From positions 1 through 24,132 of the IMG/VR virus record IMGVR_UViG_3300049925_000122: a DNA stretch of 24,132 nucleotides; one strand, given 5' to 3'. This DNA comes from a virus. Taxonomy: Duplodnaviria > Caudoviricetes. Position numbers and translations under genes: made by a program. The notes beneath the pieces were generated by a model that was given only the letters and a program-made list of their open reading frames with translations, made no database searches and had not been told where the DNA came from. Below, one piece after another: positions 2,862-22,892 of the stretch (within the stretch, counting starts at the first letter, position 1; each line of letters starts with the position of its first letter).

Positions 2862-4658
2862 ATGGCGATCTTTGATATCTGGCCCAAGCGGATCCGTGAC
2901 ATCGACATTCAGCAGGCGCAGGCCGAGCTGGACGCGATGGAGCAGGATCGTATCCGCAAGGCCGACAGCCTGCTGACCGAACAGGTGATCAGGGAGTCCG
3001 TCGAACGGCAGGTCCGCGAGGAGCTGGCGACGACCAAGCACAGCAATCCCGTCGCCGCCAACCTCGACTGGCTCGACCCGGTCCTGATGGTCGACCCGGC
3101 CGTGCAGGGCACCCAGCACCCGGGTACCCGCGGCGCAGCGATGTCCTTTGAGATCCTGCGCGGCATGGCGGCGGTCCCGGTCATCGACGGTATCATCACC
3201 ACCCGCCTGTCGCAGCTGGCGCCCTTCACGCGGCGCATGCGCAACCACAACGAGCCCAGCTTCTACGTCCGCATGCGCGACCGCGGCAAGCCGCCGAGCA
3301 CCGCGGCCCGCAAGAAGATCGCGGCGCTGGAGGCGTGGATCGAGACCTGCGGCGACCCGATGGCGCAGGAGGACCCGACCTTTGAGACCTTCGTCGCCAA
3401 GATCATGCGCGACTCGCTCACGCTCGATCAGGCCTGCGCCGAGATCCTGCTGGACAAGAAGGGCAACCCGGCGGCGATGATCCCGGTGGACGCCGCGACG
3501 ATCCGCTACGCCCTGCCCTCGGAGAAGGAGATGCTCGCGGGCCGGCGCTCGACGCTGGAACGCAAGTACATCCAGGTCCTCAACACCAAGAAGGTCGCCG
3601 AGTGGGAACCCGAGCGCTTCATGTTCGGCATCCGCCGTCCGCGCACGGACCTCAACTCCAACTTCTACGGCTGGCCCGAACTCGAGGTCATCGCCCGCAA
3701 CGTCAACTACCTGCTGCAGGCCGAGTTCTACAACGCGGCCAACTTCACCAACGGCATGCACGCCTCGGGCATCATCGCCATCATGAGCGCGATGGACAAG
3801 CACGCGTTCTACCAGCTGGACATGAAGATGCGCCAGGCGCTGTCGGGCGCGCACAACGCCCACCGCACGATGTTCCTTCAGCTCAATCCCAACGAGAAAG
3901 AGGACATCAAGCCCATCCAGTTCAGCCAGACCAACAAGGACATGGAGTTCAGCAACTGGGTCAGCTGGCTGCTCAAGATTGTCGCGGGCGCCTACCAGAT
4001 GGACCCGGCCGAGATCAACTTCATCTACGGCAACGAGAACCAGCGCAGCACCCTGGGCAACGTCGACGCCCAGGACCGCATCTCCGCCTCCAAAGAGCGC
4101 GGCCTGCCTATCCTGCTCTCCAAGCTGGCCTCGTGGCTCAACCGCAAGGTCATCTACCGCCTGGACCCGGACTTCGAGCTGGCGTTCAACGGCTTTGACG
4201 AGAAGAACCCGCTGACGCAGGCGGATCTCGACGAGCGCATGCTGCGCACCAGCATCTCGCTCAACGAGCTCCGCGCCCAGCAGGACCGCCCGACACTGGG
4301 CGACCACTGGATCTTCAACACCCCGCTCAACCCGGTGGCAGTCAACGTGCTGTCGCAGGAGCAGGCCCGCAAGGAGCAGCAGGAGCAGGAGGAGAAGCAG
4401 GCCGCCATGCAGCAACAGCAGCAGGGCCAGGGCCAGCCCGGCGATGAGGGCGAGCCGCCCAATCCGCCCGAGGAGCTGCCCGACCAGTACAAGCCGACCG
4501 GCGAGCGCGACGCGCTGCCCGAGGGCGTCTCACTCGATGACGCCTTGGGTGGAAAGCCCGAAGGCGGCGAGGAGCCCTCCGAGGACGAGGAGCCGGAGGA
4601 AGGCGAGCAGGTCAGCAAGTCCATCAAGGACGGCGTCATGATCGTGGTCGAGGTCTAG
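2862..4658 (+). CDS. Portal protein (SPO1/Twort-like) with acidic Q/E/P-rich tail
   Basis: Motifs FETFVAKIMRDSLTLDQ, PVDAATIR, RRPRTD...YGWPELE, NFTNG, KDMEFSNW, AYQMDPAEINF, SKERGL.P and SLNELR resemble Herelleviridae-type portals; located after the terminase. Confidence 0.93.
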   Translation: MAIFDIWPKRIRDIDIQQAQAELDAMEQDRIRKADSLLTEQVIRESVERQVREELATTKHSNPVAANLDWLDPVLMVDPAVQGTQHPGTRGAAMSFEILRGMAAVPVIDGIITTRLSQLAPFTRRMRNHNEPSFYVRMRDRGKPPSTAARKKIAALEAWIETCGDPMAQEDPTFETFVAKIMRDSLTLDQACAEILLDKKGNPAAMIPVDAATIRYALPSEKEMLAGRRSTLERKYIQVLNTKKVAEWEPERFMFGIRRPRTDLNSNFYGWPELEVIARNVNYLLQAEFYNAANFTNGMHASGIIAIMSAMDKHAFYQLDMKMRQALSGAHNAHRTMFLQLNPNEKEDIKPIQFSQTNKDMEFSNWVSWLLKIVAGAYQMDPAEINFIYGNENQRSTLGNVDAQDRISASKERGLPILLSKLASWLNRKVIYRLDPDFELAFNGFDEKNPLTQADLDERMLRTSISLNELRAQQDRPTLGDHWIFNTPLNPVAVNVLSQEQARKEQQEQEEKQAAMQQQQQGQGQPGDEGEPPNPPEELPDQYKPTGERDALPEGVSLDDALGGKPEGGEEPSEDEEPEEGEQVSKSIKDGVMIVVEV

Positions 4659-4692
4659 TCTAGCGTAGTTTTTGCAACCTGTGAGGATCACA

Positions 4693-5985
4693 ATGGATTA
4701 CCGTAAAGCTGCGCAGGATTTGGCTACCTACATCGAGGCCGCGGACAGCTGGGAGCGCAAGGCCGACAAGCTGCAGGGCGCCCAGCGGGCCGAGGCCCTG
4801 CGCAAGGCGATGGTCTACCGCGGCAACGCCCGGGCCATCCACACGGCAGCCGGCGAGCTGCTCAAGGCCTTTCCCATCAGCAAGCGCGTAGACTGGAAAG
4901 GCATGAAGGTCTCCATCGAGAACCCGGCCGGCAGCTTCCGCAAGTGGAAGGACGCGGGCACGGGCGCCGAGGGCCAGACCCACATGCTCAACGACTACGG
5001 CTACCTGCGCCAGACCGGCGCGGCGGACGGCGACGCGGTGGACGTGTTCATGGGACCTGACCCGGACGGCGCCCAGCACGTCTACGTGGTCCGCCAGCTG
5101 CGTGCGCCGGACTTCAGGTACTACGACGAGGACAAGTGCATGATCGGCTTTCACAACGCCGACCACGCCCGCGCCGTCTACCACCAGCACTACAACAGCC
5201 CGCGGTTCTTCGGCGGCATGGACACCTACCCGGTGGACACCTTCCTGCAGGCCGTCAAGGGCACGCACAAGGCGCCGGCTCCCGTGGGCGGCTGGAACGC
5301 GCTGATGGTCCCGCAGCGCATGTCGGACCACCCGCTGCTCAACGACGAGGCATCGGTCTTTATCGCCGAGGCGGAGAAGCCCCTGGACAACGAGGAAGCC
5401 GCCATGCCGGCGTTCGTGCGTCCGGCGGCCATCCTGCCGGACAACGCCGAGGTGATCCACAAGGCCATCCTCGGTGCGCTCGACATCATCAAGGGCGAGC
5501 CGGTCCGCAAGAAGGTCAAGTGGCAGGGGGTCAAGATCTCCATCGAGGCGCCAGCCGGAACCGTGCGGATGCACGAGGACGAGCACGGGGTCGAGAAGGA
5601 GACCTACATGTACAACGACTACGGGTACTTCAACAAGACCAAGGGAGCGGACGGCGACTGCGTCGACGTGTTCTTAGGGCCTGACCTCGAGCACGCCCAT
5701 GAGGTCTACGTGGTCCGTCAGCTTGTGGCCCCGGAGTGTAAGTACTACGACGAGGACAAGTGCATGGTGGGCTTTGACAGTGAGGACAAGGCCAAGGAAG
5801 CCTACCTCAAACATCACCATCACAAACCCAAGCACATCGGACAGATTGACACATACCCAGTTGATACGTTCGTGGACGACCTCAAGAAGACCCGCGAGAC
5901 AATGCAGCCTGTGGGCGGATGGGATGCCATCTCCAAGCTCAAACTGGACGACAAGCATCGCGGTGCGGCATCCGACGAGGACTGA
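4693..5985 (+). CDS. Protein with two tandem phage inorganic pyrophosphatase-like (InPase) domains
   Basis: Two ~138-aa copies (4882-5295, 5509-5922), each with SIE.PAG..R, NDYGY, ADGDxVDVF.GPD, VYVVRQ, YYDEDKCM.GF and DTYPVDTF...PVGGW. DxDxxD is the family I PPase metal motif. ATG 4693 follows GAGGA and is preferred over TTG 4672. Confidence 0.85.
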   Translation: MDYRKAAQDLATYIEAADSWERKADKLQGAQRAEALRKAMVYRGNARAIHTAAGELLKAFPISKRVDWKGMKVSIENPAGSFRKWKDAGTGAEGQTHMLNDYGYLRQTGAADGDAVDVFMGPDPDGAQHVYVVRQLRAPDFRYYDEDKCMIGFHNADHARAVYHQHYNSPRFFGGMDTYPVDTFLQAVKGTHKAPAPVGGWNALMVPQRMSDHPLLNDEASVFIAEAEKPLDNEEAAMPAFVRPAAILPDNAEVIHKAILGALDIIKGEPVRKKVKWQGVKISIEAPAGTVRMHEDEHGVEKETYMYNDYGYFNKTKGADGDCVDVFLGPDLEHAHEVYVVRQLVAPECKYYDEDKCMVGFDSEDKAKEAYLKHHHHKPKHIGQIDTYPVDTFVDDLKKTRETMQPVGGWDAISKLKLDDKHRGAASDED

Positions 5986-5989
5986 GTTC

Positions 5990-6066: not shown

Positions 6067-6303
6067 ATGCTCCAGACCGTCCAGGACTGGCTGTCGTTCA
6101 TTCTTGTGCTGATCCCTGTGCTGTCGGGCGTCTGCTCGTTCCTCGCCGCCGTGCTGCCGCAATCGGACAGCCTCTGGCGCAAGGTGCTGGACAAGCTTGG
6201 CAACAACTGGGGCAACGCGACCAATAGTGTCAAGGAGCTTCAGAAGGTCGTCGACCAGGTGGAGCAGGCCAAGGAAAACTGGCAGAGCAAGATTCGTCGT
6301 TAG
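6067..6303 (+). CDS. Small membrane protein, putative holin
   Basis: 78 aa; N-terminal hydrophobic helix WLSFILVLIPVLSGVCSFLAAVLP, amphipathic WRKVLDKLGNNWGNA, charged C-terminus; strong RBS GGGAGG. The holin function is inference. Confidence 0.6.
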   Translation: MLQTVQDWLSFILVLIPVLSGVCSFLAAVLPQSDSLWRKVLDKLGNNWGNATNSVKELQKVVDQVEQAKENWQSKIRR

Positions 6304-6311
6304 GGGGAGCC

Positions 6312-6590
6312 ATGCGGACATTCGCGGCCCTTTGCGCCGTAGCCATGCTCGGGTGCAGCAGCGCGTGGGAATGCACCACCGCCGAAGTGCATCTCAAGAC
6401 CCACCCGTGGAAGCCCAAGCCGGCCAAGCTGGTGACGCTGCGCTGTGACGCGGACAAGTCCGACGCGTGGCTGTGTGACGATGTCACGCTGACCACCAGC
6501 AAGGACAGCCGGGTCCATCTGTTGTGCAACCAGAAGGAGAAGGCCGTCTTTGACGTGACCGGCCCCGGAGGTTCCGATGGCGACAAGTGA
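6312..6590 (+). CDS. Predicted lipoprotein, Cys-rich
   Basis: Signal MRTFAALCAVAMLG|C (lipobox-like MLGC); four further Cys in the mature part; RBS GGGGGAG. Confidence 0.75.
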   Translation: MRTFAALCAVAMLGCSSAWECTTAEVHLKTHPWKPKPAKLVTLRCDADKSDAWLCDDVTLTTSKDSRVHLLCNQKEKAVFDVTGPGGSDGDK

Positions 6591-7428: not shown

Positions 7429-7464
7429 GGATCGGCGGCGTGTTCCGCTGATTCGGGGTAAGCC

Positions 7465-7845: not shown

Positions 7846-10800
7846 ATGAACCGCTGCCTGGTCCCTGATTCTGTCCTGTTCGAGCTGTGGTCCTCCATCC
7901 CTGCGGAGGCCGGCCCGGCGATGACACCGTTCGCCGTCACGGACATCATCAAGGCCCGTGGAGCGGGCACGGGCACCAAGGGCAGCTCTACGGGCAGCAT
8001 GAGCGGTGGTGGCGGCGCAGGCGGCGGCGCGCCCAAGGCGCCGTCGACCCCCGAGACCAGCAGCCCCGGCAGCGGTGGTGGCGTCAAGGCGCCGTCGACC
8101 CCGGAGTCCAAGGTCAGCTCAGGCGGTGGCGGTGGCGGACAGAGCGCCCTGACCGGCATCGAGATGCCCGGACACCGCTGGTTGTCCCGTGAGATGATCG
8201 GCAGCAAGAACTCCGGCGCGCCGAAGTACCGGTACAAGTACTCAATGTCGCAAGGCCTTGGTCGCGGCGTCAAGGCAGGCACCGAGATCAATGTCGGCTA
8301 CGGCAAGGAGCAGGCTGGGCAGCAGGAAGGCGGAAACGTCGTTCGCGTCAAAGGCGTGTCCGACAAGGGCGTCACGTTCGAGCACGGAGGCGCGGAGCAG
8401 ACCGTCTCGCACGAGGACTGGCACAACAAGATGGTCGAGCACTTCGGTGACGACTACACATCGGGCGTGGATCGCAACGTGCGCCGCTGGGGCAACGCCG
8501 TCTACAAGCATGTGCCCCGCGAGGCCTTCGACGAGATCGAGTCCAAGTTCGGCAAGAATGCCACCTCGGCCCAGATCGTCCAGCACATCAAGGACACGGT
8601 CGACTCGGTCCACAAGACCAAGGTCGGCGACAAGCTGCAGAAGACCTTCGACAAGATCGGCATCCACGACGAGCACGCGGTCAAGCACATGATCGGTCAC
8701 GTGCTCTCCCGCCGCGGCTGGGACAACGAGGCCCGTGCCACCCTGCTCGGCGCGGCGACCGGCGGTATGCAGTCGGCTCGTGTGGCGCGCCACTACAAGT
8801 CCATGGTCTTGCGTGCGGAGAAGGCGGCTGGCAGCAAGAAGGTCTCTACCTCGCACATCACGGACGCGATCAACCACGCCAGCTACCGCGGGTTCAAGGA
8901 CTATCACGAGCACAAGGACGCCCAGCTCCTCAAGCGCATGCACGAGCACAACGACGCGGCGCTCAAGATGGGCCACCCCGTCTACGAGGCTACGCCCGAG
9001 GGCATCAAGGAGTTCGCCAAGCACGAGGCCGTCAAGCGGTCCGAGCGCAGCCAGAAGGCCCAAGCGACCCGTATGGCCGAGGGTGAGCTGGCCACGGAGA
9101 AGCAGAACTTCCTGTCGCTCAAGAAGCTGTCCGAAACCAACCCGGACGAGTTCGAGCGCGTGCTCAAGGAGCGCGACCAGGAGTTCCGCATCGGCGGCAA
9201 GAAGGCCGAGGGCAAGGGCGGCACGGCGGGATTCAAGGAGAAGTTCCTTGCGGCCCCGTCGGTACCTGAGAAGTCCGCCACCAAGAAGGTCCGGGCGGAG
9301 AGCGGCAAGGCCAAGGGGGAGCATCCCCTGGAGACGACGCTGCGTCTGGACCCGGAGTACGCCAACGCCGACGAGGCGACCAAGCAGGCGTTCCGGGACA
9401 AGTACGCGCAGTTCTCCGACGTATCCGACGCCATGAACAAGGAGCGGATGGCCAAGAAGGGCAAGGTCGCCGAAGGCCAGCCGCCCCTCAAGGAAGGCGA
9501 CCCGCGCAAGAGCTATCCCAAGAACGACAAGGAGCTTGAGGACCAGATCTCCAGGATCAATCCCAAGTACGCCCAGGCCCTGGCGCAGGACTTCCAGAGC
9601 CACGCCGGCAACGGCATGAACCAGTCGTCGCTGCTCGACACCGAAAGCCTGCGTACCGGCCATCCCAAGATGGCGCTGCTGCACGCTGTGATGCGGCAGA
9701 TCAAGGGCGGCAAGGTGCCGCAGACCCAGCCGCAGCCTGGTCCGCAGCCTGGTCCTCAGACCCAGCCGCAGACGCAACCTGGTCCGCAACCTGGTCCGCA
9801 GACTCAACCCGGTCCGCAGCCTGGTCCGCAGACCCAGCCGCAGCCTGGTCCGCAGACCCAGCCGCAGCCTGGTCCGCAGACCCAGCCGCAGACCCAGCCG
9901 CAGACCCAGCCGCAGACCCAGCCGCAGCCTCTACCTCTGCCGCCTACGACACCGCCTCCGTCGCGCAAGCTGGCGGATGTACAACGTGACGTGCTGGCAT
10001 CACATGACCAGCTCAACAAGATGGGCGGAGAGGCGCCCGCTGCGCGCCGGCAGCATGTGCTCAATATGTATATGGATGTTCTTGCGCATCCTGAGTTGCA
10101 GCCTGAGAGCAAGCAGGCATGGCAGAAGGCCGCCACAAACTTTTTCTCCAAGCACGGAAAAGATCTCAAGGTCTCCCCCGGCACACCCACCCCAGACTGG
10201 GCCAAGGAGGCCACGCCTCCCACTCGCGAGGAGATGTTTCCTGGACTGCCTAAGAGCAAGCCTGCAGAGGGCGAAGGGGCTACGCCGACCACAGAGCGTT
10301 TTGAGGAAGCTGCGCCCCCTACTCGCGAGGAGATGTTCCCGGGCCTGCCCAAGAGCTCACAATCTGAAGCACCGAAACCATCTTCGACACAGACTCCACC
10401 TGAGCACCTGAAGTCGTATAAGTCCTTGGAAGAGGCCAAGAAGGCGGTACCGGAACTCGAACCTGTTGGAAGCAGCGAGGATATGTGGGCGACTCCTGTC
10501 CCAGGGAGCAATGAGACCTTATGGGACATACACCATCGCACGAGTCGACTCGGTACCTATTTAGCGCAGCAGATGTTTACGGACGCTCAGACAGGACAAC
10601 CGCCTAGCGGTGGATGGGTAACAGGTGTAGCACAACCTGCGCGCTTGAGTGGTACTCGTAAGGATATTAAACAGTTTTTGAATCTTGACCATATGCAGCT
10701 TGCAGATGTGGGGCTTATCCCTGGCAAGCTACACATGGACATGAAGGGGGACAAGAACGCTCCCGTACCTCCTCCAGCTGTGGCGTTGCCTGCAAGTGCG

Positions 10801-13800: not shown

Positions 13801-16800
13801 GTGCGTGACAGCCTGCGCGGTTTCCGTGCGGAAATGGAGAAGAAGTACGGCAGCTCGGATGTGACCTCCGAGAACTACACGCCGGCAGAACGGGAACGGG
13901 CTGCTGTCCATCACGACGCGATTGCGCAAAATCCGGATGCCCCTGAGAAGGACCGGGACCGGGCCCGCAAGAGCGCGGAAAGTCTGCGCGCCATGAAGGG
14001 GCAGGCCCCTATGTCGACTACAGAGCAGGGGGCGGACGACAAGCCGCCGCACCATGTGACGTGGGAGAAGGCCAAGGACGCGATGGATAAAGCCCGCAAG
14101 TCCGGGGACATCGCAAGCATCCGTCGCACGACGCAGCTCTACAACGAGGTCGAGGACCAGTTCCGGGCCAACAAGGAGGCGTTGCCGAACGGGGAGCAGC
14201 CTCGTTCGGAGGACGCAGCCCGTGCGGACAACGCGCTGATTAACCTGGCGGATCCGCAAATCCCAGAGAGCCGTAAGGCACAGATCCGCGAGAGTCTGAG
14301 CAGCCGCGGATTCACCACGACACCGACATGGTTGGTCCCGGACAGCAGCTCTTTGAATGTTGCCGGAGACGATGAGGAGCCCCCGGCCCCCAAGCAGGTC
14401 GAGGCGCCAGCTCCGGATGTACAGCAGGTAGAAGAGGAGGCCTCTGCGCAGGAGGCAGCGAAGCAGGCGCAGGCTGCCAAGGAAGCCAAGGACCAGGCGC
14501 GTGCAGCCCTGCGCCAGAAGACAGCCGCGGTCGAGCAAGGCTTGAGCCTCATCGGTGACACGGTCGAGAAGATCAAGTCGGGGCAGGCTCAGTCCCTGGA
14601 GAGGACCACGGACAAGGAAATGCTGCAGCGGCTTGTCGATACCCTGACGTCCTCGGTGGAAGGGTACGACGAGAAGCGCCGCGGCGTGGCGGACAAGGTC
14701 AAGCTGACAGGCTGGCTCAAGGCGGCCAAGGACCGCCTGGGCGAACTGAACGCGGCCCCCAAGGAGGAGCCGAAGACGGAGAAGCCTGCACCCGCGGCGC
14801 CCGCTGCCGAGAAGCCCAAGAAGAACAAGAAGGCGAGCACGCAGGCGTCGACCGAGGAGGCCGCGCCGCCGGCTGCTACATCGAGCGAGCCTCAAGCGGC
14901 AACGGAAGAATCCGCCCCTGCTGCCGAGACAGCTGCGCCCGCTGCTTCCGATAAACCAGGAGCAGCAGAGGATCAGAAGCCGGAGAGCCCTTCAGACCCG
15001 TATGAGCGGGACGAGAAGGGGCGTCCGATGCTGGACCCCACAAAGGCTCAGTTGTTTGAGCGCGGTTGGAAGTCCAATCGCAAGTCCAACAATGACATTC
15101 GGTTGATCACCGAGAAAGGTCACCGCTTTCATGTACGGGACAGTTTGAGGGGCACCTCCCACTCTGTTGAACTGGCACCCCCTAAGGATGAGGACCAGTA
15201 CTCAGACAGTCCTCGTAGGTATCTGGAGCCGGATCCTAAAAATCCTATGGGTCCGCCGATCGTGGTGGAGCGTCCGCGTAGCGAGCAGTACAGTCACCCG
15301 GAATGGAAATCCTGGCAGCATGCGGTAGCAGCGATGCACGCGTATGATGCGGCCAATGAGCCGGACCCGAACGCAGGCTTTCGAGGGGACGCCAAGAAGC
15401 GCGCTGCGGAAGTCTCGAAGCGCTTTAAGGCTTTAGACTCCGAGATGATGAATCGGTTCCTTTCCGGCGCTGTCAATGAGGCGGGACATCGGGAGATGTG
15501 GCAGACCACTTCGGATATCCCGTTGTTGAACAAGTTGATTTCCACTGCGTCAGCTATCCCGGAAAAACTTCGGACGCATAGTCAAGACCAGACGCTTCGG
15601 TACGCGACCAAGCGATTGGAAGAGCTGGTAGGTCCGAAGGCCGAGAACACACCTGCCGCTTCGACATCGACCGAGGAGGCCACGCCGCCGGCCGCCGCAG
15701 AGGCGCCCCAGGCCAAGCAGGAGGAGAAGCCCAAGGCCTCCAAGTTCGACGCGGTCGACAAGCTCGTCGACGAGATCCAGTCGCGTGCGACCGGCAAGGA
15801 TGCGGAGCGCATCTCCACGACCACGGACAAGGACTACCTGCACCGCATCATCTCCACGCTCGGCGACATGGACGACGAGGCGTACGCGGAGATTGAGGAT
15901 CCGCAGGAGCGCGAAGGGCACAAGGACGACCACAAGCACATCATCTCCGTCGCCCTCAAGCGCCTGGGCGAGCTGGAAGGCGCCAAGACTTCGGACGTCT
16001 CTGAGAAGACCTATTCGGATTCAAAGCACGGCTATTCCAAGGAGTTGACTCAGGAGCTGACCAAGGCGCATCAGGATGAAGAATCTCGTCCTGTGGCGCA
16101 GGCAGTTCACCACGCCATTCAGAACCCGTTGACTTCAGACTCAGATGGCGTCAAGGCCGCACAGCAGGTTCTTGCAGCACAACCGCAAGTGCTTGATGCG
16201 TTCAACACTGCCGTGTCGGGAAAACACGATCAGGTCCCAGAGCAGTACCGGAAAGATGAGTACCTGGAGGGTTTCAAACCAAAGGCCGAACCACTGGTTC
16301 GCGCTCGCACGCTCACCAAGTGGTTCGAGGCCGCAAAGGGGAAGGCGGCCAAGGCCGCGATTAGTATCGGTAAGACGCTGGTTACAGGTGCCGTTGCGCT
16401 GGCCGCCATGGTAGGCGGGGCGCCGTCGTTGTCCGCCCCTTCTGCGGAAGCGGCCATGACGCACGAGATGCCGACAACGGCAGGCGGTGTGCGAGCCAGC
16501 GCGGACTTTGGTCGCCCTAATCCAGCCATGTTGTCGGCAGCCCGCGAGATGAAAGAGGAAGGCGGCCCAGCAGCTGCAGTCCGTACGGATGCGAAGGAAG
16601 ACAAATCAGGCAGTTATCTGGACCAGGTGTGGAAGCAGTCCTACGGTCCGATGCCTGCAACGGCGGTCCTTGCGGCGGACGCACTGGCATCCAAAGCACG
16701 TGGACATACCAGCTTTCTGCTGCCCCCACCTCCAGAGAACTTTGAATCCACAGGCAACCCAGGCGCAGACAACGCAATGCGTTTGGTGCAGAAGTATGAC

Positions 16801-17742
16801 GATAAGTCCTACTTTGGGTTAGGTCTAAGTGGTAAAGCCCGAAAGGATGGAAAGGTGGGCTTTCAATGTTCGAGTTTTGCGGCTCGAGCTCTTGGTATGC
16901 CGTTTATGGATACAACCTCTGTGTACACAGATGCCAAGGGCGCACAGAGTCATTACAAGCAGGTTCCGTTCGGAAAGCAGCAAGCAGGAGATGTTATCGT
17001 ATATCCGGACTATGAGATTAACGGAGAGCACCACAATGGCCATATCGCTGTTGTGATTGATCCAAGCGCAGAGAACTTTACGATTGCAGATGCGTCCAGC
17101 TCAGATGACGGTGTGCACCTGCGTAAGCTGCACCCCAGCTTTGTGTTCATGGACAAAACTATCTTTGCGCGCCCGCTACACTCCAACCTGCAGAAGGCCC
17201 TCGATTGGGAGTACGACATGGATGAGTTGGACGACATGGAATGGGACGACGGAGAGGACCTGCTGATCAAGGCGGAGGACGACACGTTCACGCCGCCCGA
17301 GTCCGTGGCCTCCGCGGCCCGCCGTGGCCTGGACCTGCGTGACAAGCAGCCCGAGAGCAACAAGGGCGGGACCGCCGTGGGCATCGCCCGGGCCAAGCAG
17401 CTCGCCAACCGCCAGCCGGTCTCGTACTCGACTATCAAGCGCATGGCGAGCTTCTTCGCCCGCCATGCCGTGGACAAGCAGGGCGAGGGCTGGGGCAAGG
17501 ACTCCAAGGGGTTCCAGGCCTGGTTGTTGTGGGGCGGCGATGCCGGCCATTCATGGGCGGACTCGATTGTCCGTCGCATGGACGGCAAGATGGACAAGCA
17601 CATTGACTCCGACGAGCAGCAGGAAGAGGCGCCCCCGATGCTGGCCGCGTACCAGCAGCAGAAGCAGGGCCAGCAGTTGCGCAAGTCAATCCCGGAGCCT
17701 ACAGTCCACGACGACGAAGCCCCGCCGGCATTCTGGCGGTAG
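7846..17742 (+). CDS. Giant (3,298 aa) multidomain polyvalent-like protein, probable internal head/ejected cargo
   Basis: Uninterrupted 9.9-kb ORF with GAGAGG RBS. Contains a ParB-like segment, AT-hook, NlpC/P60-like domain, a C-terminal WGGDAG domain, internal repeats and P/A/E linkers; lies between portal and MuF/protease. Confidence 0.9.
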   Translation: MNRCLVPDSVLFELWSSIPAEAGPAMTPFAVTDIIKARGAGTGTKGSSTGSMSGGGGAGGGAPKAPSTPETSSPGSGGGVKAPSTPESKVSSGGGGGGQSALTGIEMPGHRWLSREMIGSKNSGAPKYRYKYSMSQGLGRGVKAGTEINVGYGKEQAGQQEGGNVVRVKGVSDKGVTFEHGGAEQTVSHEDWHNKMVEHFGDDYTSGVDRNVRRWGNAVYKHVPREAFDEIESKFGKNATSAQIVQHIKDTVDSVHKTKVGDKLQKTFDKIGIHDEHAVKHMIGHVLSRRGWDNEARATLLGAATGGMQSARVARHYKSMVLRAEKAAGSKKVSTSHITDAINHASYRGFKDYHEHKDAQLLKRMHEHNDAALKMGHPVYEATPEGIKEFAKHEAVKRSERSQKAQATRMAEGELATEKQNFLSLKKLSETNPDEFERVLKERDQEFRIGGKKAEGKGGTAGFKEKFLAAPSVPEKSATKKVRAESGKAKGEHPLETTLRLDPEYANADEATKQAFRDKYAQFSDVSDAMNKERMAKKGKVAEGQPPLKEGDPRKSYPKNDKELEDQISRINPKYAQALAQDFQSHAGNGMNQSSLLDTESLRTGHPKMALLHAVMRQIKGGKVPQTQPQPGPQPGPQTQPQTQPGPQPGPQTQPGPQPGPQTQPQPGPQTQPQPGPQTQPQTQPQTQPQTQPQPLPLPPTTPPPSRKLADVQRDVLASHDQLNKMGGEAPAARRQHVLNMYMDVLAHPELQPESKQAWQKAATNFFSKHGKDLKVSPGTPTPDWAKEATPPTREEMFPGLPKSKPAEGEGATPTTERFEEAAPPTREEMFPGLPKSSQSEAPKPSSTQTPPEHLKSYKSLEEAKKAVPELEPVGSSEDMWATPVPGSNETLWDIHHRTSRLGTYLAQQMFTDAQTGQPPSGGWVTGVAQPARLSGTRKDIKQFLNLDHMQLADVGLIPGKLHMDMKGDKNAPVPPPAVALPASAIPTKTGKGGEFDHAKHHKLNAPTEAQTPQEGAASMSREDAYTPGADVPPETPEESQPAEADEPLDEDAVLPPHIEEAESAASAAIQSGDVKAAVAHATDLYVEAADSKDPNVIASAMSAINDVIRQMPEGKDRQDLQESVDHLEELYSSHQQKEPTDHIAEAHDALQQAAETGDPAQIEAANEAFKTVLHEQVSEHPELAQTPEVQAAHQLIDVADKHVKSVKGPEPEAAPAPAPEPAAASEPAPEPTAPEPTAPEPTAPAQEPATEPEAAAPVTGLGAAPESVAKQKGLAPKLWEAAAKKLDEGKNFGQVVKDIKDAVARGSVPKKVGDDMVSAVKARMDAIAAAAPKPEKPAKPATSIEGLGAYPPVVAERPLYRALWDRATADVRAGKSHAVASKEIKAAIANKTIPADTGNEILAALQGGISTQTVDARSPGKVLDTEKQPSDTSKIPVQKEAEPRVGAEAMPAGRGGLTDPVQARKDALNQLSKFNTADEMHAALPDSHKVEQGRTSAVDVPYSGGFQEGALSTESYGEDPYVYQNRYMDPQQFKGVLKLEGMTYEQVVRMPTTQKYIEWYKQGHEPPPIDVVIRDDGTPYATNRRRVVAALEAGVARIPARVEIGRKAELFQEAKNQSAAPTSSNIKAPAQAVTPSKGAEPEPAAPEPAAPSSTLSQEHQRIIGHLKVPEKEHNQVRSAKELSDALESKLEAKDESGNPVFDEDHPVRLVLESLSWPEDGDSWYQGNQKDLEDLVQDAHDYDDIEDYLANQGDGLSKDNKPEDKEDVPEWTAERKNAIKAREAQWKSAEDDVAAFLKELVPSETQREAILGRGWDVGDPEPEDTDDDMDEAAPPAVVQEAAPEPTAPQETAQQEAAPQEPAAPQEPAAPQEPAAPQEPAAPQEQKRGRGRPAGAKNKKTLQREAEEAAKPQEPETAAPDEPTPEAPAVPAEPTPEAPAVPGTEEAAPPSEASSSVTRVAGGRKPVAESQMATLVSDLAKKSPAEVRDSLRGFRAEMEKKYGSSDVTSENYTPAERERAAVHHDAIAQNPDAPEKDRDRARKSAESLRAMKGQAPMSTTEQGADDKPPHHVTWEKAKDAMDKARKSGDIASIRRTTQLYNEVEDQFRANKEALPNGEQPRSEDAARADNALINLADPQIPESRKAQIRESLSSRGFTTTPTWLVPDSSSLNVAGDDEEPPAPKQVEAPAPDVQQVEEEASAQEAAKQAQAAKEAKDQARAALRQKTAAVEQGLSLIGDTVEKIKSGQAQSLERTTDKEMLQRLVDTLTSSVEGYDEKRRGVADKVKLTGWLKAAKDRLGELNAAPKEEPKTEKPAPAAPAAEKPKKNKKASTQASTEEAAPPAATSSEPQAATEESAPAAETAAPAASDKPGAAEDQKPESPSDPYERDEKGRPMLDPTKAQLFERGWKSNRKSNNDIRLITEKGHRFHVRDSLRGTSHSVELAPPKDEDQYSDSPRRYLEPDPKNPMGPPIVVERPRSEQYSHPEWKSWQHAVAAMHAYDAANEPDPNAGFRGDAKKRAAEVSKRFKALDSEMMNRFLSGAVNEAGHREMWQTTSDIPLLNKLISTASAIPEKLRTHSQDQTLRYATKRLEELVGPKAENTPAASTSTEEATPPAAAEAPQAKQEEKPKASKFDAVDKLVDEIQSRATGKDAERISTTTDKDYLHRIISTLGDMDDEAYAEIEDPQEREGHKDDHKHIISVALKRLGELEGAKTSDVSEKTYSDSKHGYSKELTQELTKAHQDEESRPVAQAVHHAIQNPLTSDSDGVKAAQQVLAAQPQVLDAFNTAVSGKHDQVPEQYRKDEYLEGFKPKAEPLVRARTLTKWFEAAKGKAAKAAISIGKTLVTGAVALAAMVGGAPSLSAPSAEAAMTHEMPTTAGGVRASADFGRPNPAMLSAAREMKEEGGPAAAVRTDAKEDKSGSYLDQVWKQSYGPMPATAVLAADALASKARGHTSFLLPPPPENFESTGNPGADNAMRLVQKYDDKSYFGLGLSGKARKDGKVGFQCSSFAARALGMPFMDTTSVYTDAKGAQSHYKQVPFGKQQAGDVIVYPDYEINGEHHNGHIAVVIDPSAENFTIADASSSDDGVHLRKLHPSFVFMDKTIFARPLHSNLQKALDWEYDMDELDDMEWDDGEDLLIKAEDDTFTPPESVASAARRGLDLRDKQPESNKGGTAVGIARAKQLANRQPVSYSTIKRMASFFARHAVDKQGEGWGKDSKGFQAWLLWGGDAGHSWADSIVRRMDGKMDKHIDSDEQQEEAPPMLAAYQQQKQGQQLRKSIPEPTVHDDEAPPAFWR
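9721..9930 (+). repeat. Coding minisatellite (QTQP/QPGP linker)
   Basis: Interleaved units such as cagacccagccg and cagcctggtccg over ~210 bp. Confidence 0.95.
10207..10356 (+). repeat. 51-bp dispersed duplication, EA(T/A)PPTREEMFPGLPKS x2
   Basis: Copies at 10207-10257 and 10306-10356, differing mostly at synonymous positions. Confidence 0.9.
11530..11574 (+). repeat. 15-bp tandem repeat x3 (APEPT)
   Basis: gctcccgaacctacg, three perfect copies. Confidence 0.95.
12427..12663 (+). other. ParB/Srx-like domain within the giant protein
   Basis: YIEWYKQGHEPPPIDVVIRDDGTPYATNRRRVVAALEAGVARIPARV follows the ParB-N pattern PPI.V...G.....(G)..R..AA...G...IP..V. Confidence 0.65.
13411..13500 (+). 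repeat. 18-bp tandem repeat x5 (AAPQEP)
   Basis: gctgcgccacaggagcca and variants, immediately before the AT-hook. Confidence 0.95.
13501..13545 (+). other. AT-hook motif within the giant protein
   Basis: KRGRGRPAGAKNKKT contains the RGRP core with basic flanks. Confidence 0.7.
13606..13668 (+). repeat. 33-bp-period tandem duplication (EPTPEAPAVP x2)
   Basis: gagcctac(a/g)ccagaagcacctgccgtacct occurs twice. Confidence 0.9.
14848..15692 (+). repeat. 26-bp direct repeats (1 mismatch) bracketing a lower-GC in-frame module
   Basis: tcgaccgaggaggcc(g/a)cgccgccggc at 14848-14873 and 15667-15692, 819 bp apart. Confidence 0.9.
16768..17175 (+). other. NlpC/P60 (CHAP-like) cysteine peptidase domain within the giant protein
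   Basis: GFQCSSFA (Cys codon 16867), QAGDVIVY, GHIAVV (His codon 17041), IADASS, terminal FARP. Confidence 0.8.
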
Positions 17743-17756: not shown

Positions 17757-17972
17757 ATGCCGTTCGAGTCCGAGAAGCAGCGCCGTTACATGTTCATGCA
17801 CCACCCCGACATCGCCGAGGACTGGGTGCAGGAAGCCAAGGAGCACCACCAGCCCGTGGTCCGCAAGTGCGACGACGGCGATGGCTGGCAGGGGGACGAC
17901 GGCTTTGACGCCCGGCTGCAGGACATCCGCACCCAGCACGTGCCGTTCATCGAGATCGACAAGGGGGAGTGA
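17757..17972 (+). CDS. Small phage protein with MPF.S..QRR.M motif
   Basis: AGGAGG RBS. MPFESEKQRRYMFMHHPDIAEDW resembles a short motif I recall from uncharacterised phage proteins. Confidence 0.8.
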   Translation: MPFESEKQRRYMFMHHPDIAEDWVQEAKEHHQPVVRKCDDGDGWQGDDGFDARLQDIRTQHVPFIEIDKGE

Positions 17973-18253
17973 TGAAGGTCTCCATCGAGATCGCGCAGCA
18001 CGAGCAGGGACTTGCGGACGAGGAGCTGCTCATCAAGGCGATCCGCGGCGCGACCCTTGCCGTCAAGCAGGCGCGGCCCAAGGTCGCGGCCCAGGTGACC
18101 GCCGCCAACCACGAGGTGGGCGGGGACATCCAGGCGCTGGACGACCTGTCGGTCCGTATGGCGGCAGCCTACGAGGCTCGCGTGCAGAGAATGCTGATTG
18201 ATATCGCCGACGTGCTTTCCGAGCCCCCTGCGAAGGGCTCAGGACGATCATGA
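17972..18253 (+). CDS. Hypothetical helical protein upstream of MuF
   Basis: TGATG coupling with the upstream stop (alternative GTG start at 17969) and ATGA coupling to MuF; contains LIKA. Confidence 0.75.
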   Translation: MKVSIEIAQHEQGLADEELLIKAIRGATLAVKQARPKVAAQVTAANHEVGGDIQALDDLSVRMAAAYEARVQRMLIDIADVLSEPPAKGSGRS

Positions 18254-19356
18254 CGAGAAAGGACCAGATCGCCAGAATCGTGCAGGACCACCACGACGCG
18301 TTCCTCGTCGAGGTGCTCGGGCCGCTTGGTTGCGGTCTTGCGCCAGAAAGGATCGCCGAGCTCAGGCAAAAAGGGCTCGTCACCAAGCAGGGGCTTGACA
18401 CCCATGGCGGCGCCGTGCCTACCGGCGGGACGGTCGACCCCTTCATGTTCCTGCGCGGCATCGGCAAGTACCTGGCCGAGCATCCCGAGAAGTACGACGA
18501 GCTCAAGAAGGACCCCGACAGCAAGTGGGTGGACAAGGTCTCGGAAGTACTGGCGGACCTCAAGCAGGAGGACCTGCGGGTGCCCGGCATGCACCACGTC
18601 GAGGAAGCCGTGCACATGGACGACGAGGGGCACGTCGAGATCTCCCCGGAGATCCCCGTGCCCAGGAACAAGCCTGTGCCCGCCGACTACGGCGAGAAGG
18701 TGCCGCAGGAGAAGGGCCTGGTCCCGGTCCGTGCCGAGTGGAAGGGCGCCAGTCCGATGGACGTCGCGGCGTACCGGCAGGCCCTGACCCGGGCAGGCGA
18801 GTTCTGCCGTGGCCTGGGCAACATCTGGTCCGAGGAGCTTGGCCATGTGGCCATGGAGAAATGGGACGGCGAGAGGATTGTCTCGACGCCGGACCCTGCA
18901 CTGCGCGAGGAGTCCCTGCGCAGGATCCGCCGGACCGTCGCCGAGGCGTGGAAGGATAAGAAGCCAGCGAAGACACTGGCTTCTGACCTGGCCCGGGAGA
19001 CGGGTGACTACACCCGCAACTGGGACCGTATCGCACGCACCGAGCTGCAGGCGGCGTACAACGACGGCGTGGCCATCGACGCCGTGCAGGCCTTTGGCAA
19101 GAAGGCGCAGGTCGCCCGGATACCGGAGCGTCGTGCGTGCTCGGCATGCAAGCGCCTGTTCCTGGACGCCACGGGCAACCCGGTTGTCTGGGACGTGGCC
19201 GAGATCGCCAAGAACGGCACCAACGTCGGACGCAAGCGCTCGGAGTGGCAGGCCACGCTGTTTCCCGTGCATCCCAAGTGCATGTGCGGGACGATGATCG
19301 TTCCTCCCGGAATGTACGTGTTGCCTACCGGAAGGCTCGTGCGCCGCAAAGCGTAG
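18250..19356 (+). CDS. MuF/SPP1 gp7-like head morphogenesis (minor capsid) protein
   Basis: RNWDRIARTELQAAYNDG, ACSAC (CxxC) and PVHPKCMC (HPxCxC) are MuF hallmarks. Confidence 0.88.
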   Translation: MTRKDQIARIVQDHHDAFLVEVLGPLGCGLAPERIAELRQKGLVTKQGLDTHGGAVPTGGTVDPFMFLRGIGKYLAEHPEKYDELKKDPDSKWVDKVSEVLADLKQEDLRVPGMHHVEEAVHMDDEGHVEISPEIPVPRNKPVPADYGEKVPQEKGLVPVRAEWKGASPMDVAAYRQALTRAGEFCRGLGNIWSEELGHVAMEKWDGERIVSTPDPALREESLRRIRRTVAEAWKDKKPAKTLASDLARETGDYTRNWDRIARTELQAAYNDGVAIDAVQAFGKKAQVARIPERRACSACKRLFLDATGNPVVWDVAEIAKNGTNVGRKRSEWQATLFPVHPKCMCGTMIVPPGMYVLPTGRLVRRKA

Positions 19357-19388: not shown

Positions 19389-20231
19389 ATGATCGACATC
19401 AACGACTTCTTTGGGTGGACCAGCACGATCGAGGAGATCGGCGATCCCGTCCTCAAGGCGGACCCGGAACGGCCAAAGACCGTTCGCAAGGAGTTCGACG
19501 ACGTCCCCGTCGCCAAGGTGGTCGGCCTGCTGACCGCGGGCGGCAAGGACTTCCAGGGCGAGGACATCGACCAGACCGGTATCGACTGGGAGTACTTCCG
19601 CAAGTCGGGTTGGGTGAACTACGAGCACCAGCAGGGTATGGAAAACGTCATCGGCTACCCTGACCCTGACGGCATCGAGGAGGCGCTGGACAGCGAGGGC
19701 AATCCCGCGACCCGCGTCACCGTGTGGATCCTGCTCGACAAGCGCGGCCAGGAAATCTACAACAAGATGAAGATGCTGCAGAAGGCCGGCGGCCGTCGCC
19801 AGTTCGGGTTCTCGATCGAGGGCCAGGCCCTGGAACGCGACCACACCAACCCCAAGCGCATCACCAAGTGCCGGGTCAAGAACGTGGCCCTGACCGGACA
19901 TCCCGTCCGGGACACTGCCCGCGTCGAGATCGTCAAGGGCCTGGCGGCCTCCCTGGTCGGCCTCGATCTGGCCTCTGTGAATAAACCTGAGGTCGGTGTG
20001 GATGATGTGGACTCGGGAAAGCCCGTGCTGCAGTACAAAACAGTCGACAAGGATCTGCGTAAGATCCTGTCCGATTCACCCGCCAACCCAGGGCAGAAGA
20101 AGACCATCTCATACAACGATTTGTGTGATCTTGTCCGCAAGTCGTTTCCGCATATCGGAGAGACTGATATTCGCAAAGTCGTCGATCGTATCGTGCAAGT
20201 AGCCAAGGAGCGTGAGAAATCACACCCTTGA
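19389..20231 (+). CDS. Prohead (capsid maturation) protease, HK97-fold serine type
   Basis: DFQGEDIDQTGIDWEYF, WVNYEH (His), FGFSIEG (Ser), KNVALTGHPV. ATG 19389 has GGAGG 8 nt upstream; the 19137 start overlaps MuF and is rejected. Confidence 0.9.
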   Translation: MIDINDFFGWTSTIEEIGDPVLKADPERPKTVRKEFDDVPVAKVVGLLTAGGKDFQGEDIDQTGIDWEYFRKSGWVNYEHQQGMENVIGYPDPDGIEEALDSEGNPATRVTVWILLDKRGQEIYNKMKMLQKAGGRRQFGFSIEGQALERDHTNPKRITKCRVKNVALTGHPVRDTARVEIVKGLAASLVGLDLASVNKPEVGVDDVDSGKPVLQYKTVDKDLRKILSDSPANPGQKKTISYNDLCDLVRKSFPHIGETDIRKVVDRIVQVAKEREKSHP

Positions 20232-20312: not shown

Positions 20313-21302
20313 ATGAGCGCACCGTTGAACCCGGCCGATGCCGATGCCAAGGCCGCCGCGAAAAAGGCCAAGAAAGAGCTCGAGCGATCGGAGCTCAAGA
20401 AGGGCTGCGACGATTACATGAAGAAAGGCTTCTCGGAAAAAGAAGCTCTGAAGAAAGCCAAGCGCGACCACAAGCACGGCAAGTTCCTCAAGGCCGGCGT
20501 CAGCTCGTACTTGGCCAAGGGTTTCTCACAAGAGGAAGCCGAGCAGCAGGCCCATCAGGACCTCAAGAAGGCCCACAAGGTCGTCAAGAAGGCCATGCAC
20601 GGGCACCTGGCTGCGCACCTCAAGAAGAACCTGGCTGCGGGCATGGAGCCTGAGAAGGCTTTGAAGAAGGCCCTGAAGAAGGGCGGCTTCGACCCCAAGG
20701 AACTCAAAGGCGGCAAGTCGGATGCCCCCATCGACGGCGTCAAGAAGGCGCTTGAGGATGTGGCCGGTATCCTCGGTCAGCCCCAGATGAACCAGGCCAT
20801 CGTGTCCAAGGACAAGATGGACGAGCTCGTCAAGAGCCTCGATGGTTCGGCCAAGGGTCAGTTCGAGGCCGTGCAGGGCGAGATGTACCACACCCGCAAG
20901 GTGCTTCGTGAGTACGTCGACAGCACCCGCGCACTGGGCAAGGCTGTCCAGGCGATGGGCGAGGAGCTGGTCAAGGCGCTGAGCGACATGCAGTTTGCGC
21001 AGGCCGACAGCGTCCAGAAGTCGTTGTCGACCGAGACGGTGCCCGCGCACTTGTCGACGCCCAAGGCAACGGACGCGCCTCGCGCCGTCGAGACCAAGGC
21101 GGTCCCGACGCCCGCGGAGAACGTGGATGTGGCGAAGGTCTCTGTGGGAGACTTCATCGAGAAGGCCAACAGCTGGATCGAGAACAACCCGCGTGACCCC
21201 ATCGTCAAGTCGCTGGCGGTGGCCATCGGCGAGCTCTGCTCGCCCGGTGGTGACCTCAAGGCTCAGATGGATCAGTTTGGCAAGACAATCGGTCTGGTGT
21301 AA
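20313..21302 (+). CDS. Putative capsid scaffolding protein
   Basis: Lies between protease and capsid; helical and Lys/Ala-rich; many [ILV]xK[AS] motifs; AGGAG RBS. Confidence 0.75.
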   Translation: MSAPLNPADADAKAAAKKAKKELERSELKKGCDDYMKKGFSEKEALKKAKRDHKHGKFLKAGVSSYLAKGFSQEEAEQQAHQDLKKAHKVVKKAMHGHLAAHLKKNLAAGMEPEKALKKALKKGGFDPKELKGGKSDAPIDGVKKALEDVAGILGQPQMNQAIVSKDKMDELVKSLDGSAKGQFEAVQGEMYHTRKVLREYVDSTRALGKAVQAMGEELVKALSDMQFAQADSVQKSLSTETVPAHLSTPKATDAPRAVETKAVPTPAENVDVAKVSVGDFIEKANSWIENNPRDPIVKSLAVAIGELCSPGGDLKAQMDQFGKTIGLV

Positions 21303-21362
21303 GGACCGCAAGGTAGACTCTCCTCCGCTTGGAGGTTGCCGTAAGGCAGAAGGACTGGGATC

Positions 21363-22892
21363 ATGGATGCCTCTTTGTTCAACTCTCTCGCAGGCGGCGC
21401 AGTCTCGTTGAACGAGGCGCAGGTCAAGTACCTGGTCGCTGCCCTCAACGACAACCTCAAGAAAGCGCAGGATGCGTCGACGGTCGGCTATCAGGTCGCC
21501 CCGACCATCGGTGGTCCGCTGTCGCCGCTGCTCCCGCAGTCGATCGACCCCGTCCTCACCTCGCTCGCGATCTCGCAAGACGAGCTGATGATGTGGAAGA
21601 TGCTGCCCAAGGACACGGCGACGCAGACCCTGCATGAGTACCGTCGGCGCGTCAGCCACGGTTCGCTGGTGCAGGATCACAACGTCGGCGAAGGTTCGGC
21701 GGGTAACAACAGCACGTCGACCTACGACATGCAGAGCGTCCAGATCAAGTTCTGGTCGGTCCGTCGTGAGATCACCGACGTCGCTGCGGGCCTGACGGGC
21801 ATCGCCCCGGCCAGCAACCTGCTGACCGAGCACACCAACGAGGCCGCCTTCGACCTGCTCCGCAGCGTCGAAATGGACACCCTGTTCGGTGACACCGACC
21901 TGATCTCAACCAAGGTCAACGGCGTCATCAAGCAGATTGTCGCCAAGGGCAAGACCGAGGACCTGGCCGGCGCGCAGATCACCCTGGACCGCATCAGCCT
22001 GACCCTGCGCAAGCTGGCTCAGCCGACGTCGGCCCGCGGCGGTATCCACCCGACGCACATCCTGACCACGCACGCGATCTGGAATGATCTCGAGCGCCAG
22101 GAGCGCAAGTCGGGCGCCCGCTTCGACAAGACCACTTCGGAGCCCAAGTTCTACTTCGGCGCCGAGGCGATCAACGTCCTGGGCCCCAAGGGCAACATCC
22201 CGATCATCGCGGTGCCGTTCCTCGACGATCAGGCCATCATCGGTCTGCCGTCGGACAGCGCTCTGTCGCCGAATGGTAGCGGCGTCTCGGGCTCGGTTCC
22301 CGCCGGCCCCGTTGCCCCGGACATCACCGTGAATGGCACGGGTTGGGCTTCGGGCGCGAATGCCAGCTCGAAGTTCCTTGCGGCTGACGCGGGCGCGTAC
22401 TGGTACAAAGTCGTTGCCCACAATGCGGACGGCTTCTCGGCCCCGACCATCTCGGCCCCGTTCGTGGGCGCTGGTAACCCGGCTGGCGCTTCGGCGGCCG
22501 TCACTGTGGCGGCTGGCGATGTGGTCACGATGAAGTTCAAGGAAGAGACCACGTCCTACAAGCCGACGTACTACCGCGTCTATCGCTCGCCCAAGAACGG
22601 CGCGGTGGCGGACTGCGCGTACCTGTACTCGGTCAAGGTTCCGGCCGGCGCCGGTAACATCGTGACCATCTCGGACACGAACTCGGTTCGCGCCAACACC
22701 GGCCGTGTCCTGTTCTGGACCAACGACAAGGACCACGTGTGCTTCTACCGGCTGCTGCCGATGGCGCGCATCCCCTTGGCGAAGATCCAGCTGACCACGC
22801 CGTTCTCGATCTTCATGTCGGGCGCCCCGGTCATCAAGCTGCCGGAGAAGTTCTACATGATGACCAACGTCGGCTTCGCCGCGGCGCTGTAA
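21363..22892 (+). CDS. Major capsid protein, SPO1/Twort/A511 (Herelleviridae-like) type
   Basis: NLKKAQDASTVGY; QSIDPVLTSL; TLHEY...HG; VEMDTLFGD...NGVIKQI; Ig-like insertion YWYKVVAHN...SAP...RVYR; C-terminus RLLPMARIPLA...GAPVIKLPEKF...NV parallels phage K Cps (ELLPMMKLPLA...GALALRAPKKW...NV, recalled). Confidence 0.93.
   Translation: MDASLFNSLAGGAVSLNEAQVKYLVAALNDNLKKAQDASTVGYQVAPTIGGPLSPLLPQSIDPVLTSLAISQDELMMWKMLPKDTATQTLHEYRRRVSHGSLVQDHNVGEGSAGNNSTSTYDMQSVQIKFWSVRREITDVAAGLTGIAPASNLLTEHTNEAAFDLLRSVEMDTLFGDTDLISTKVNGVIKQIVAKGKTEDLAGAQITLDRISLTLRKLAQPTSARGGIHPTHILTTHAIWNDLERQERKSGARFDKTTSEPKFYFGAEAINVLGPKGNIPIIAVPFLDDQAIIGLPSDSALSPNGSGVSGSVPAGPVAPDITVNGTGWASGANASSKFLAADAGAYWYKVVAHNADGFSAPTISAPFVGAGNPAGASAAVTVAAGDVVTMKFKEETTSYKPTYYRVYRSPKNGAVADCAYLYSVKVPAGAGNIVTISDTNSVRANTGRVLFWTNDKDHVCFYRLLPMARIPLAKIQLTTPFSIFMSGAPVIKLPEKFYMMTNVGFAAAL

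Follow-up and report, generated by a model that had tools for sequence, protein, structure and literature searches.

The window analysed here is a complete virus record of 24,132 bases (IMG/VR IMGVR_UViG_3300049925_000122; G+C ~63%) with a single head operon on the + strand, to which all coordinates below refer. In this operon the genes for the small and large terminase subunits are followed by those for the portal, a tandem InPase-domain protein, six small open reading frames (ORFs) and a giant protein, and then by two small ORFs, a MuF-like protein, a protease, a scaffold and the capsid protein. Products of the operon share a short motif, a hydrophobic residue, any residue and Lys followed by Ala or Ser and sometimes by Gly, which is probably the cleavage site of the prohead protease encoded by ORF 19389, with processing of capsid, scaffold, portal and cargo included. 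For the assembly core we hold such a site to be very likely; its extension to the InPase protein and to the ends of the giant protein is likely, and dicing of the giant interior is improbable. The basis for this reading is the motif itself, its enrichment, its conserved positions, a fold match and conserved His and Ser residues of the protease. We infer cleavage and packaging of the head proteins from sequence, packaging in particular from gene position and motif.

The motif was scored in a strict form, [ILV]xK[AS], and in a loose form that also admits Gly and Met, and the chance level for each window protein was taken from 2000 shuffles. The scaffold (20313..21302; 11 strict sites, 16 loose), which was assigned by its position between protease and capsid, had 11 strict sites against 1.68 in shuffled sequence (p=0.0005). 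The excess held when dipeptides were preserved in the shuffle (11 vs 3.5, p=0.001), and among 7,260 class-gap-residue-class patterns the strict motif was the best in this protein (p=1.7e-6, ~0.013 after Bonferroni correction). An identical pattern test on T4 gp22 returned [IL]xE (16 vs 5.9) with the Lys motif at 1 vs 1.2 and, since it thereby recovers the established motif of T4, the test reads out known specificity; in phage K gp174 it gave 7 vs 1.0 for the Lys motif. The site motif is thus confirmed as real and as marking the scaffold strongly beyond chance. The preliminary description of this DNA had regarded the motif as common to capsid, scaffold and enzymatic cargo. Measured against shuffled sequence this held for the scaffold and the protease (3 vs 0.50, p=0.014) and was borderline for the InPase protein (3 vs 0.86, p=0.05), while by count alone no excess was found in the portal (2 vs 0.77), capsid (1 vs 1.1) or giant protein (7 vs 6.7), so that the case for these three rests on position and conservation. 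Over all 20 window ORFs the count was 31 vs 16.2.

Relatives were collected by capsid-profile scans, using search patterns that did not contain the motif, which returned 24 viral and 29 metagenome loci. The resulting 54 sequences comprised 52 new loci, L001 and the window; 33 were kept, and the 21 dropped were duplicates, were short or had no usable head region. ORFs were called by a simple script of our own, and strict-motif counts were compared with shuffled sequence. A contrast between head and non-head genes, proposed in the preliminary description, was found as anticipated: the motif was enriched in 28 scaffolds (215 vs 25.7, 8-fold) and 27 proteases (98 vs 18.1, 5-fold), whereas 232 ORFs after the capsid gene displayed no excess (75 vs 83.6, 0.9-fold). 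Counts were 15 vs 5.8 in seven portals, 51 vs 26 in 31 capsids, 78 vs 41 in 117 other ORFs upstream of the capsid gene and 14 vs 10.2 in 15 MuF proteins; a portal search in the viral contigs and a MuF alignment in the metagenome contigs gave no match. In the relatives' scaffolds the residue at P3, two positions ahead of the Lys at P1, was most often Leu, then Ile, followed by Val, Met and Phe, and P1' was Ser more often than Ala and Ala more often than Gly. The motif accompanies the head module over loci of about 34-70% G+C.

The major capsid protein (21363..22892; PHROG 752) is of the SPO1/812 type. It is 22-24% identical over most of its length to proteins of Lactobacillus, Staphylococcus, Listeria and Bacillus phages, and its profile matches SPO1 Gp6.1 (9VEL, E=7e-54), 5LII (E=1e-46) and 9ROW. 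The capsid LKKA (21456-21467, residues 32-35), which closes a predicted propeptide, aligns with LNKA of SPO1, and K34 is kept in 13 of 14 aligned rows; an N-terminal L-x-K-A occurs in all 31 capsids of the relatives, at residues 23-47 and, in two over-long ORF calls, at ~100. With an SPO1-type capsid protein and its N-terminal Lys site the window has what characterises an SPO1/Herelleviridae-type head module. Two comparisons that the preliminary description had drawn, a cut between Lys-23 and Ser-24 in Cps of Listeria phage A511 and VVKS at the same place in phage K, were borne out: in GenBank X91069 the mat_peptide of A511 Cps begins at residue 24, after A-L-K23, and the phage K capsid has VVKS at residues 22-25. 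The 812-type capsid chain has been deposited both as 463 amino acids (aa; 5LII) and as 439 aa starting just past K24 (9ROW). As the A511 cut follows A-L-K, P3 is not fixed, and the [ILV]-x-K-[AS] of the preliminary description does not cover this site, nor IVKG and IIKG, which it listed among its own examples. Lys-specific cuts are also made in HK97 and T5.

In the portal protein (2862..4658, 598 aa; Pfam PF04860, PHROG 12) the sites IRKA (2952-2963) and VSKS (4611-4622) both lie outside the conserved core. A loose site was located 11-25 residues from the C-terminus in 8 of 10 portal-like proteins found with phmmer (G002 has AEKA at this position and L028 none), and at residues 26-49 in 4 of the 5 portals with an intact start. 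The small ORF ahead of the MuF gene (17969..18253) bears LIKA at 18029-18040 (residue 21), and similar ORFs in L003, L015, L017/18, L019/20 and L022/23 also have a site at residue 20-21; the other loci have unrelated genes at this position. Past their last Lys site the portals end in a short alternating-hydrophobic tail (MIVVEV, IKIDIEV, FFEIDLN, LTVEVYKIED; 4623-4655 in the window), and several leaders open with a similar strand (MKVSIEIA, MRLIVFTKA); these tails and strands could be the actual head-targeting signal.

The prohead serine protease (19389..20231; PHROG 1028) is 31% identical over 130 aa to A511 ORF1 (E=3e-16), which itself matches Peptidase_S78 above the cut-off. When 24 of the 27 proteases were aligned (two partial sequences and one fused were excluded), His80 (19626-19628), Ser142 (in GFSIEG, 19812-19814) and Lys183 were invariant in all 24, with Ile, Leu, Val, Met or Phe two residues ahead of Lys183 in 23; His80 and Ser142, which A511 ORF1 also has, are the probable catalytic residues. 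A search of PDB sequences with the protease profile gave chance matches only. The AlphaFold2 (AF2) model, with a mean predicted local distance difference test (pLDDT) of 69, matched T4 gp21 best (5JBL; Foldseek E=1e-3; Z 13.2, root-mean-square deviation 3.4, 146 residues aligned), followed by the proteases of varicella-zoster virus and cytomegalovirus (Z 7.1 and 6.6). ORF 19389 thus has the beta-barrel fold, the conserved His and Ser and the location between portal and scaffold/capsid of a T4 gp21/assemblin-type protease. Its sites are VLKA (19449), LQKA (19776; overlooked in the preliminary description), IVKG (19929) and VRKS (20133), and Lys183 falls just beyond the gp21-aligned domain (residues 3-171). 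In the proteases of A511 and phage K the capsid junction, K-S-[FW]-x-T-G-[YH]-G, is repeated right after the catalytic domain, in the place of the invariant K183, and this repetition of the mature capsid start points to one enzyme reading both. Each site named in the preliminary description was found where it had been placed, including those of the giant protein (7945, 17188, 17263, 17677) and LIKA 18029 of ORF 17972, and its proposal of a maturation site on capsid, scaffold, protease and portal, a prediction from sequence, is well supported by enrichment, controls and conservation.

The tandem InPase-domain protein (4693..5985, 430 aa from the ATG; PF18823 twice), whose residues are numbered from a longer TTG start at 4672, is laid out as a helical-hairpin leader, InPase 1, a disordered linker and InPase 2. 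We found 219 homologs, listed 120 and aligned 22 with the window protein. Inside a variable leader, all 23 aligned rows have K45 and K65, and K65, the Lys of LLKA (4858..4869), a candidate cut freeing InPase domain 1, sits 10 residues ahead of the first conserved Trp. The second domain bears its own site at the same offset as the first, the linker ahead of it containing IHKA and IIKG (5455..5496), and P0020, the only other two-domain homolog aligned, has IYKS for IHKA and LVKG for IIKG. In the AF2 model LLKA occupies a loop ahead of domain 1, and the disordered linker (pLDDT <50) contains IHKA and IIKG. The preliminary description had taken this protein as processed head cargo, which is supported for these three sites and doubtful for the fourth, LRKA (4798..4809; Lys invariant). 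Of 96 InPase domains from non-orthologous proteins that we also checked for loose sites, 42 had one in the 30 residues upstream (7.9 expected), 79 in the 25 residues downstream (9.0 expected) and 10 in neither place. The downstream site is not present in the window's own clade and could be part of the fold.

The giant protein (7846..17742, 3,298 aa) is composed of a leader, a core of ~3,080 aa and, C-terminal to it, an acidic spacer followed by a PHROG 2859 module and a short tail. IIKA (7945..7956) closes a predicted 36-aa leader, and the homolog P0139 (2,138 aa) keeps this site as LVKA at residue 34. A CHAP-like cysteine amidase domain (aa 3002-3080; 16849..17085) gave a PF05257 match at E=3.8e-5 and 24.5 bits, narrowly below the cut-off of 26 bits, with weak matches to endolysin PHROGs. 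LQKA (17188..17199) forms a border at which homology to P0139 and L003 resumes (IKKA in P0139) and just past which homology to P0147, which shares the CHAP-like region, stops; the C-terminal part of P0139 matches the L003 protein, so that both count once. Similarity to P0139 then runs through LIKA (17263..17274, identical in P0139), immediately ahead of the PHROG 2859 module (17287..17586, ~100 aa), a mobile module that is common in phage proteins and has no assigned function. Where the window has the single site LRKS (17677..17688), P0139 has DUF5824 (1982-2108) flanked by IHKA 1972 and IKKS 2113, and the stand-alone P0141 (383 aa) comprises the same two cassettes bordered by VHKA, VDKA and IKKA. 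The module is preceded by LRKG, LIKG and VHKA in P0034, P0038 and P0141. P0034 and P0038 are InPase orthologs with the module fused C-terminally after LRKG or LYKG-LIKG, so that InPase and giant genes exchange one and the same cassette.

The sites of the giant lie towards its ends, four of seven falling within the terminal 260 aa (binomial p=0.001). With segment borders that were set after the sites had been seen, the last 198 aa held 3 vs 0.28 and the last 323 aa of P0139 4 vs 0.88, and the interiors were poor in sites (3 vs 6.4, p=0.12, in the giant and 0 vs 4.5, p=0.01, in P0139). In 19 large upstream proteins of the relatives the first 60 aa had 8 vs 1.7 and the last 200 aa 20 vs 9.3. The interior sites were as the preliminary description had them, two LPKS and one LTKA. 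The two LPKS derive from a single repeat, with Pro at P2; P0139 keeps no interior site of the three, and LTKA is not conserved where P0147 aligns. The homology blocks of the interior are linked by Pro/Ala repeats without sites. The proposal that the giant is trimmed thus stood, whereas its splitting into separate effectors did not: a polyprotein cut into many effectors was rejected, interior sites being fewer than chance and not conserved. An interior said to be Lys-rich was an overstatement, as the giant has 7.7% Lys and most of its interior is acidic. A DNA-level repeat as origin of the motif was likewise rejected; the codons vary, and Ser is encoded by both AGC and TCN.

We propose that a protease of the gp21 fold, incorporated into the prohead, would cut after Lys in hydrophobic-x-K|[A/S/G] during head maturation. 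The scaffold would be diced to peptides of <50 aa, the largest predicted piece being 48 aa with the loose motif, and would exit the head; the capsid would shed residues 1-34, the portal both of its tails and the protease its C-terminal stretch beyond Lys183. Both the InPase protein and the giant would enter the prohead core via their leaders and then be cut, the former to free two domains (~199 and ~163 aa), and the latter at both ends to leave a single chain of ~3,080 aa ending in the CHAP-like amidase, with release of small C-terminal cassettes. The preliminary description had the motif address proteins to the protease, which is too strong. Targeting and processing determinants are separable in the T4 leader, as the available text of PMC9026906 has it, and 42 head proteins of SPN3US are uncut according to the available part of PMC10052503. 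For these reasons it is more likely that the motif is a release signal, with the address in the leader or tail beyond it, and a motif-free protein such as MuF, which is likely a head protein, may then still be packaged.

Several results weigh against the proposed scheme. The MuF-like head morphogenesis protein (18250..19356; weak PHROG 4728 match) has 0 sites. A511 Cps has Ala at P3 of its K23|S24 cut, and A511 ORF2, the scaffold, is not enriched in the strict motif (2 vs 1.0), Thr being frequent at its P3. TerL, in which LYKS was present as the preliminary description reported, has 4 vs 1.2 loose sites (p=0.03), and with such an excess once Gly and Met are admitted the loose motif is unspecific and weak evidence alone. 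LRKA falls midway along a helix (36-59) that is predicted with confidence in the InPase model and is doubtful as a cut site, and VLKA and LQKA of the protease fall within its gp21-aligned range, where they may be either self-destruction sites or structural matches; some conserved matches may thus be structural. Finally, the compared sequences are kin, so that the counts overstate independence, and only one full-length and one partial homolog of the giant were found.

The protease site could be valid for the assembly core only, with the InPase protein and the giant either not packaged or not cut and their matches inherited, structural or due to chance. This would agree with the counts in the giant and with those in the relatives' 19 large upstream proteins, which are barely enriched (92 vs 74, 1.24-fold) and show no excess in their interior (65 vs 64), and with the mid-helix LRKA and a downstream InPase site that may belong to the fold. 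It would also agree with PHROG 2859 not being flanked by the motif in unrelated phages: in the best 150 of 4,284 database matches, only 10 internal copies out of 95 had a loose site upstream (6.6 expected), and 23 of 105 had one downstream (16.6 expected). As a universally motif-bounded cassette the module is unsupported outside this lineage; its border is lineage-specific, which fits a lineage-specific protease and adds no independent support. However, sites cluster at the ends of both giants and are depleted in between, cassettes are gained or lost exactly between sites, the second InPase domain comes with a copy of the site at an unchanged offset, and the InPase and giant genes sit between those for portal and capsid. 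We consider a restriction to the core unlikely.

We attach a very slight probability to the motif being a by-product of Lys/Ala-rich amphipathic helices with no recognition site. The scaffold, with 15% Lys, is likely helical, several sites lie in predicted helices, and a spacerless [ILV]K[AS] is also enriched in the relatives' scaffolds (75 vs 25.9), an excess that is probably due in part to sites such as LLKA. Such helices would not account for an excess that survives the dipeptide-preserving shuffle, for the absence of the Lys motif from T4 gp22, which shows its own, for the lack of enrichment in the relatives' scaffolds when Arg or Glu replaces Lys at P1, or for the match with the mapped A511 cut. 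Non-head ORFs also argue against it: in three complete relatives, with head-cluster borders that were drawn after seeing the phage K data and to that extent weaken the comparison, the head cluster had 86 vs 35.7 (36 ORFs) and the remainder 96 vs 92.2 (246 ORFs, 1.04-fold). The sites might also be real and be read by an agent other than ORF 19389, either a host protease or, without cargo cleavage, docking to scaffold or portal. Staphylococcal phage 80alpha uses a host protease, and our analysis did not identify a residue that would give S1 its specificity for Lys; yet ORF 19389 is itself an intact protease of the gp21 fold, in which His80 and Ser142 are invariant, as is a site past its own catalytic domain, and the motif travels with the head module across the whole G+C range given above, which leaves another reader only a slim chance.

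The proposed cleavage by ORF 19389 resembles that of T4, where gp21 acts at L/I-x-E sites on gp22/gp67/gp68, gp23, gp24, IPI-III and Alt, the last trimmed at both ends (available text of PMC9026906). The protease fold is the same, the motif spans three residues with a hydrophobic P3 and, as predicted here, the scaffold would be diced, the capsid propeptide removed, the protease cut at its own C-terminus and cargo trimmed at one or both ends. In contrast to T4, P1 is predicted to be Lys rather than Glu ([IL]xE in the window scaffold, 2 vs 2.5), capsid and portal are of SPO1 type, the cargo would comprise a tandem InPase protein together with a 3,298-aa chain whose cassettes are exchangeable, and the cuts are predicted from sequence. 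The window system works like a T4-type L/I-x-E system and is not a member of it. With the Herelleviridae head module (A511 ORF1/ORF2/Cps; K gp175/gp174/gp173; 812; SPO1 gp6.1) the window shares a homologous capsid and protease, the gene order, an A511 Cps cut after Lys before Ser and the enrichment of the phage K scaffold. It differs in its 63% G+C, in MuF, InPase and giant genes between portal and protease that phage K does not have, and in P3, Leu/Ile/Val here and Ala in A511 Cps, often Thr in the A511 scaffold; given this G+C content, a capsid identity of 22-24% and a 24-kb fragment, membership of Herelleviridae is unlikely.

In phiKZ (gp175, S/A-x-E) and SPN3US (gp245, A-x-E), as far as the available portions of PMC10052503 and PMC9026906 describe them, one protease with one short motif likewise removes propeptides from later-ejected cargo and many head proteins are entirely uncut; these are jumbo phages with Glu at P1, in which processing was shown by mass spectrometry. 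Among polyvalent proteins, Iyer et al. 2017 (PMC5512222, in its available text) described InPase domains (PF18823) encoded close to terminase and portal genes, for which they predicted packaging and injection and inferred a possible role in removing pyrophosphate or in acting on defence nucleotides; processing was proposed there via built-in MPTase domains, and not by a head protease at a Lys motif. Judged by at least two effector domains per chain in a portal-terminase context, the InPase protein with its two domains would at best narrowly qualify as polyvalent, and the giant, with a sub-threshold CHAP match and PHROG 2859, has only one recognisable enzyme domain. Literature searches and term look-ups in the available text of PMC12749128, PMC5646251, PMC3201976, PMC12886913, PMC12977511, PMC10713586 and PMC7824862 found neither a Lys consensus nor a Lys-specific version on scaffold, portal or cargo, which may be in print in supplements or subscription papers.

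One head protease with one short motif and trimmed cargo is textbook knowledge from T4 and phiKZ and is known from SPN3US as well, and the gain here is in scope and prediction rather than in a new kind of mechanism. We tentatively put forward, as falling a little short of probable, that a broad and mostly uncultured lineage with SPO1-type heads uses one Lys code, and that InPase, PHROG 2859 and DUF5824 cassettes are swapped between cut sites, loaded as polyproteins and released for early host takeover. If so, the mature internal proteome would be readable from sequence, and a site plus a leader would make a portable loading tag. Such a code may have been overlooked since in trypsin proteomics a digestion site looks the same as a cleavage after Lys. 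The reading offers a testable specificity for an SPO1/Herelleviridae-type head protease, for which we found only the capsid cut documented, and exact predicted mature termini for eight window proteins. In uncultured phages it would also provide a sequence rule by which domain limits and candidates for internal cargo could be found, among the latter a 3,298-aa protein that matches almost no family.

Several observations concern the giant and its cassettes. Pfam, NCBIfam and PHROG scans gave no assignment within its interior; the region at aa ~1540-1615 (12400-12700) resembles what we take to be a ParB/Srx-type domain, a resemblance that neither Pfam nor PHROG matches support. The Atlas returned nothing for the first 620 aa and, for the PHROG 2859 module, only viral clusters without a name. 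Tandem Pro/Gln/Ala-rich repeats (QPQPGP, PEPTA, QEPAAP) stand between homology blocks (9720-9940, 11490-11600, 13400-13520), and the interior has patches of lower G+C at 10-11, 12-13 and 15-17 kb, which suggests recent module exchange. In P0158-P0277, from other lineages, PHROG 2859 is often preceded by a recurring [RK]-N-P or [AD]-[AE]-[DE], which may be cut sites of other proteases or lineage-specific linkers.

Between the InPase and giant genes lie six small ORFs (6067-7803), none with a strict site. One resembles a two-helix membrane protein, two resemble lipoproteins or signal-peptide proteins and one, weakly matching PHROG 8369, contains a coiled coil; they are possibly lysis functions inserted in the head operon. 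A 71-aa ORF between the giant gene and ORF 17969 (17757-17972) has no family match and no strict site, and contains VVRKC and a terminal IDKG. Downstream of the capsid gene, ORF 23273-24076 (267 aa, no family match) bears LLKS and VNKA near its N-terminus, both missing from the site list of the preliminary description; both are lost in L001, and L003 has LAKA, LTKS and VNKA. Its product is possibly a processed head decoration protein.

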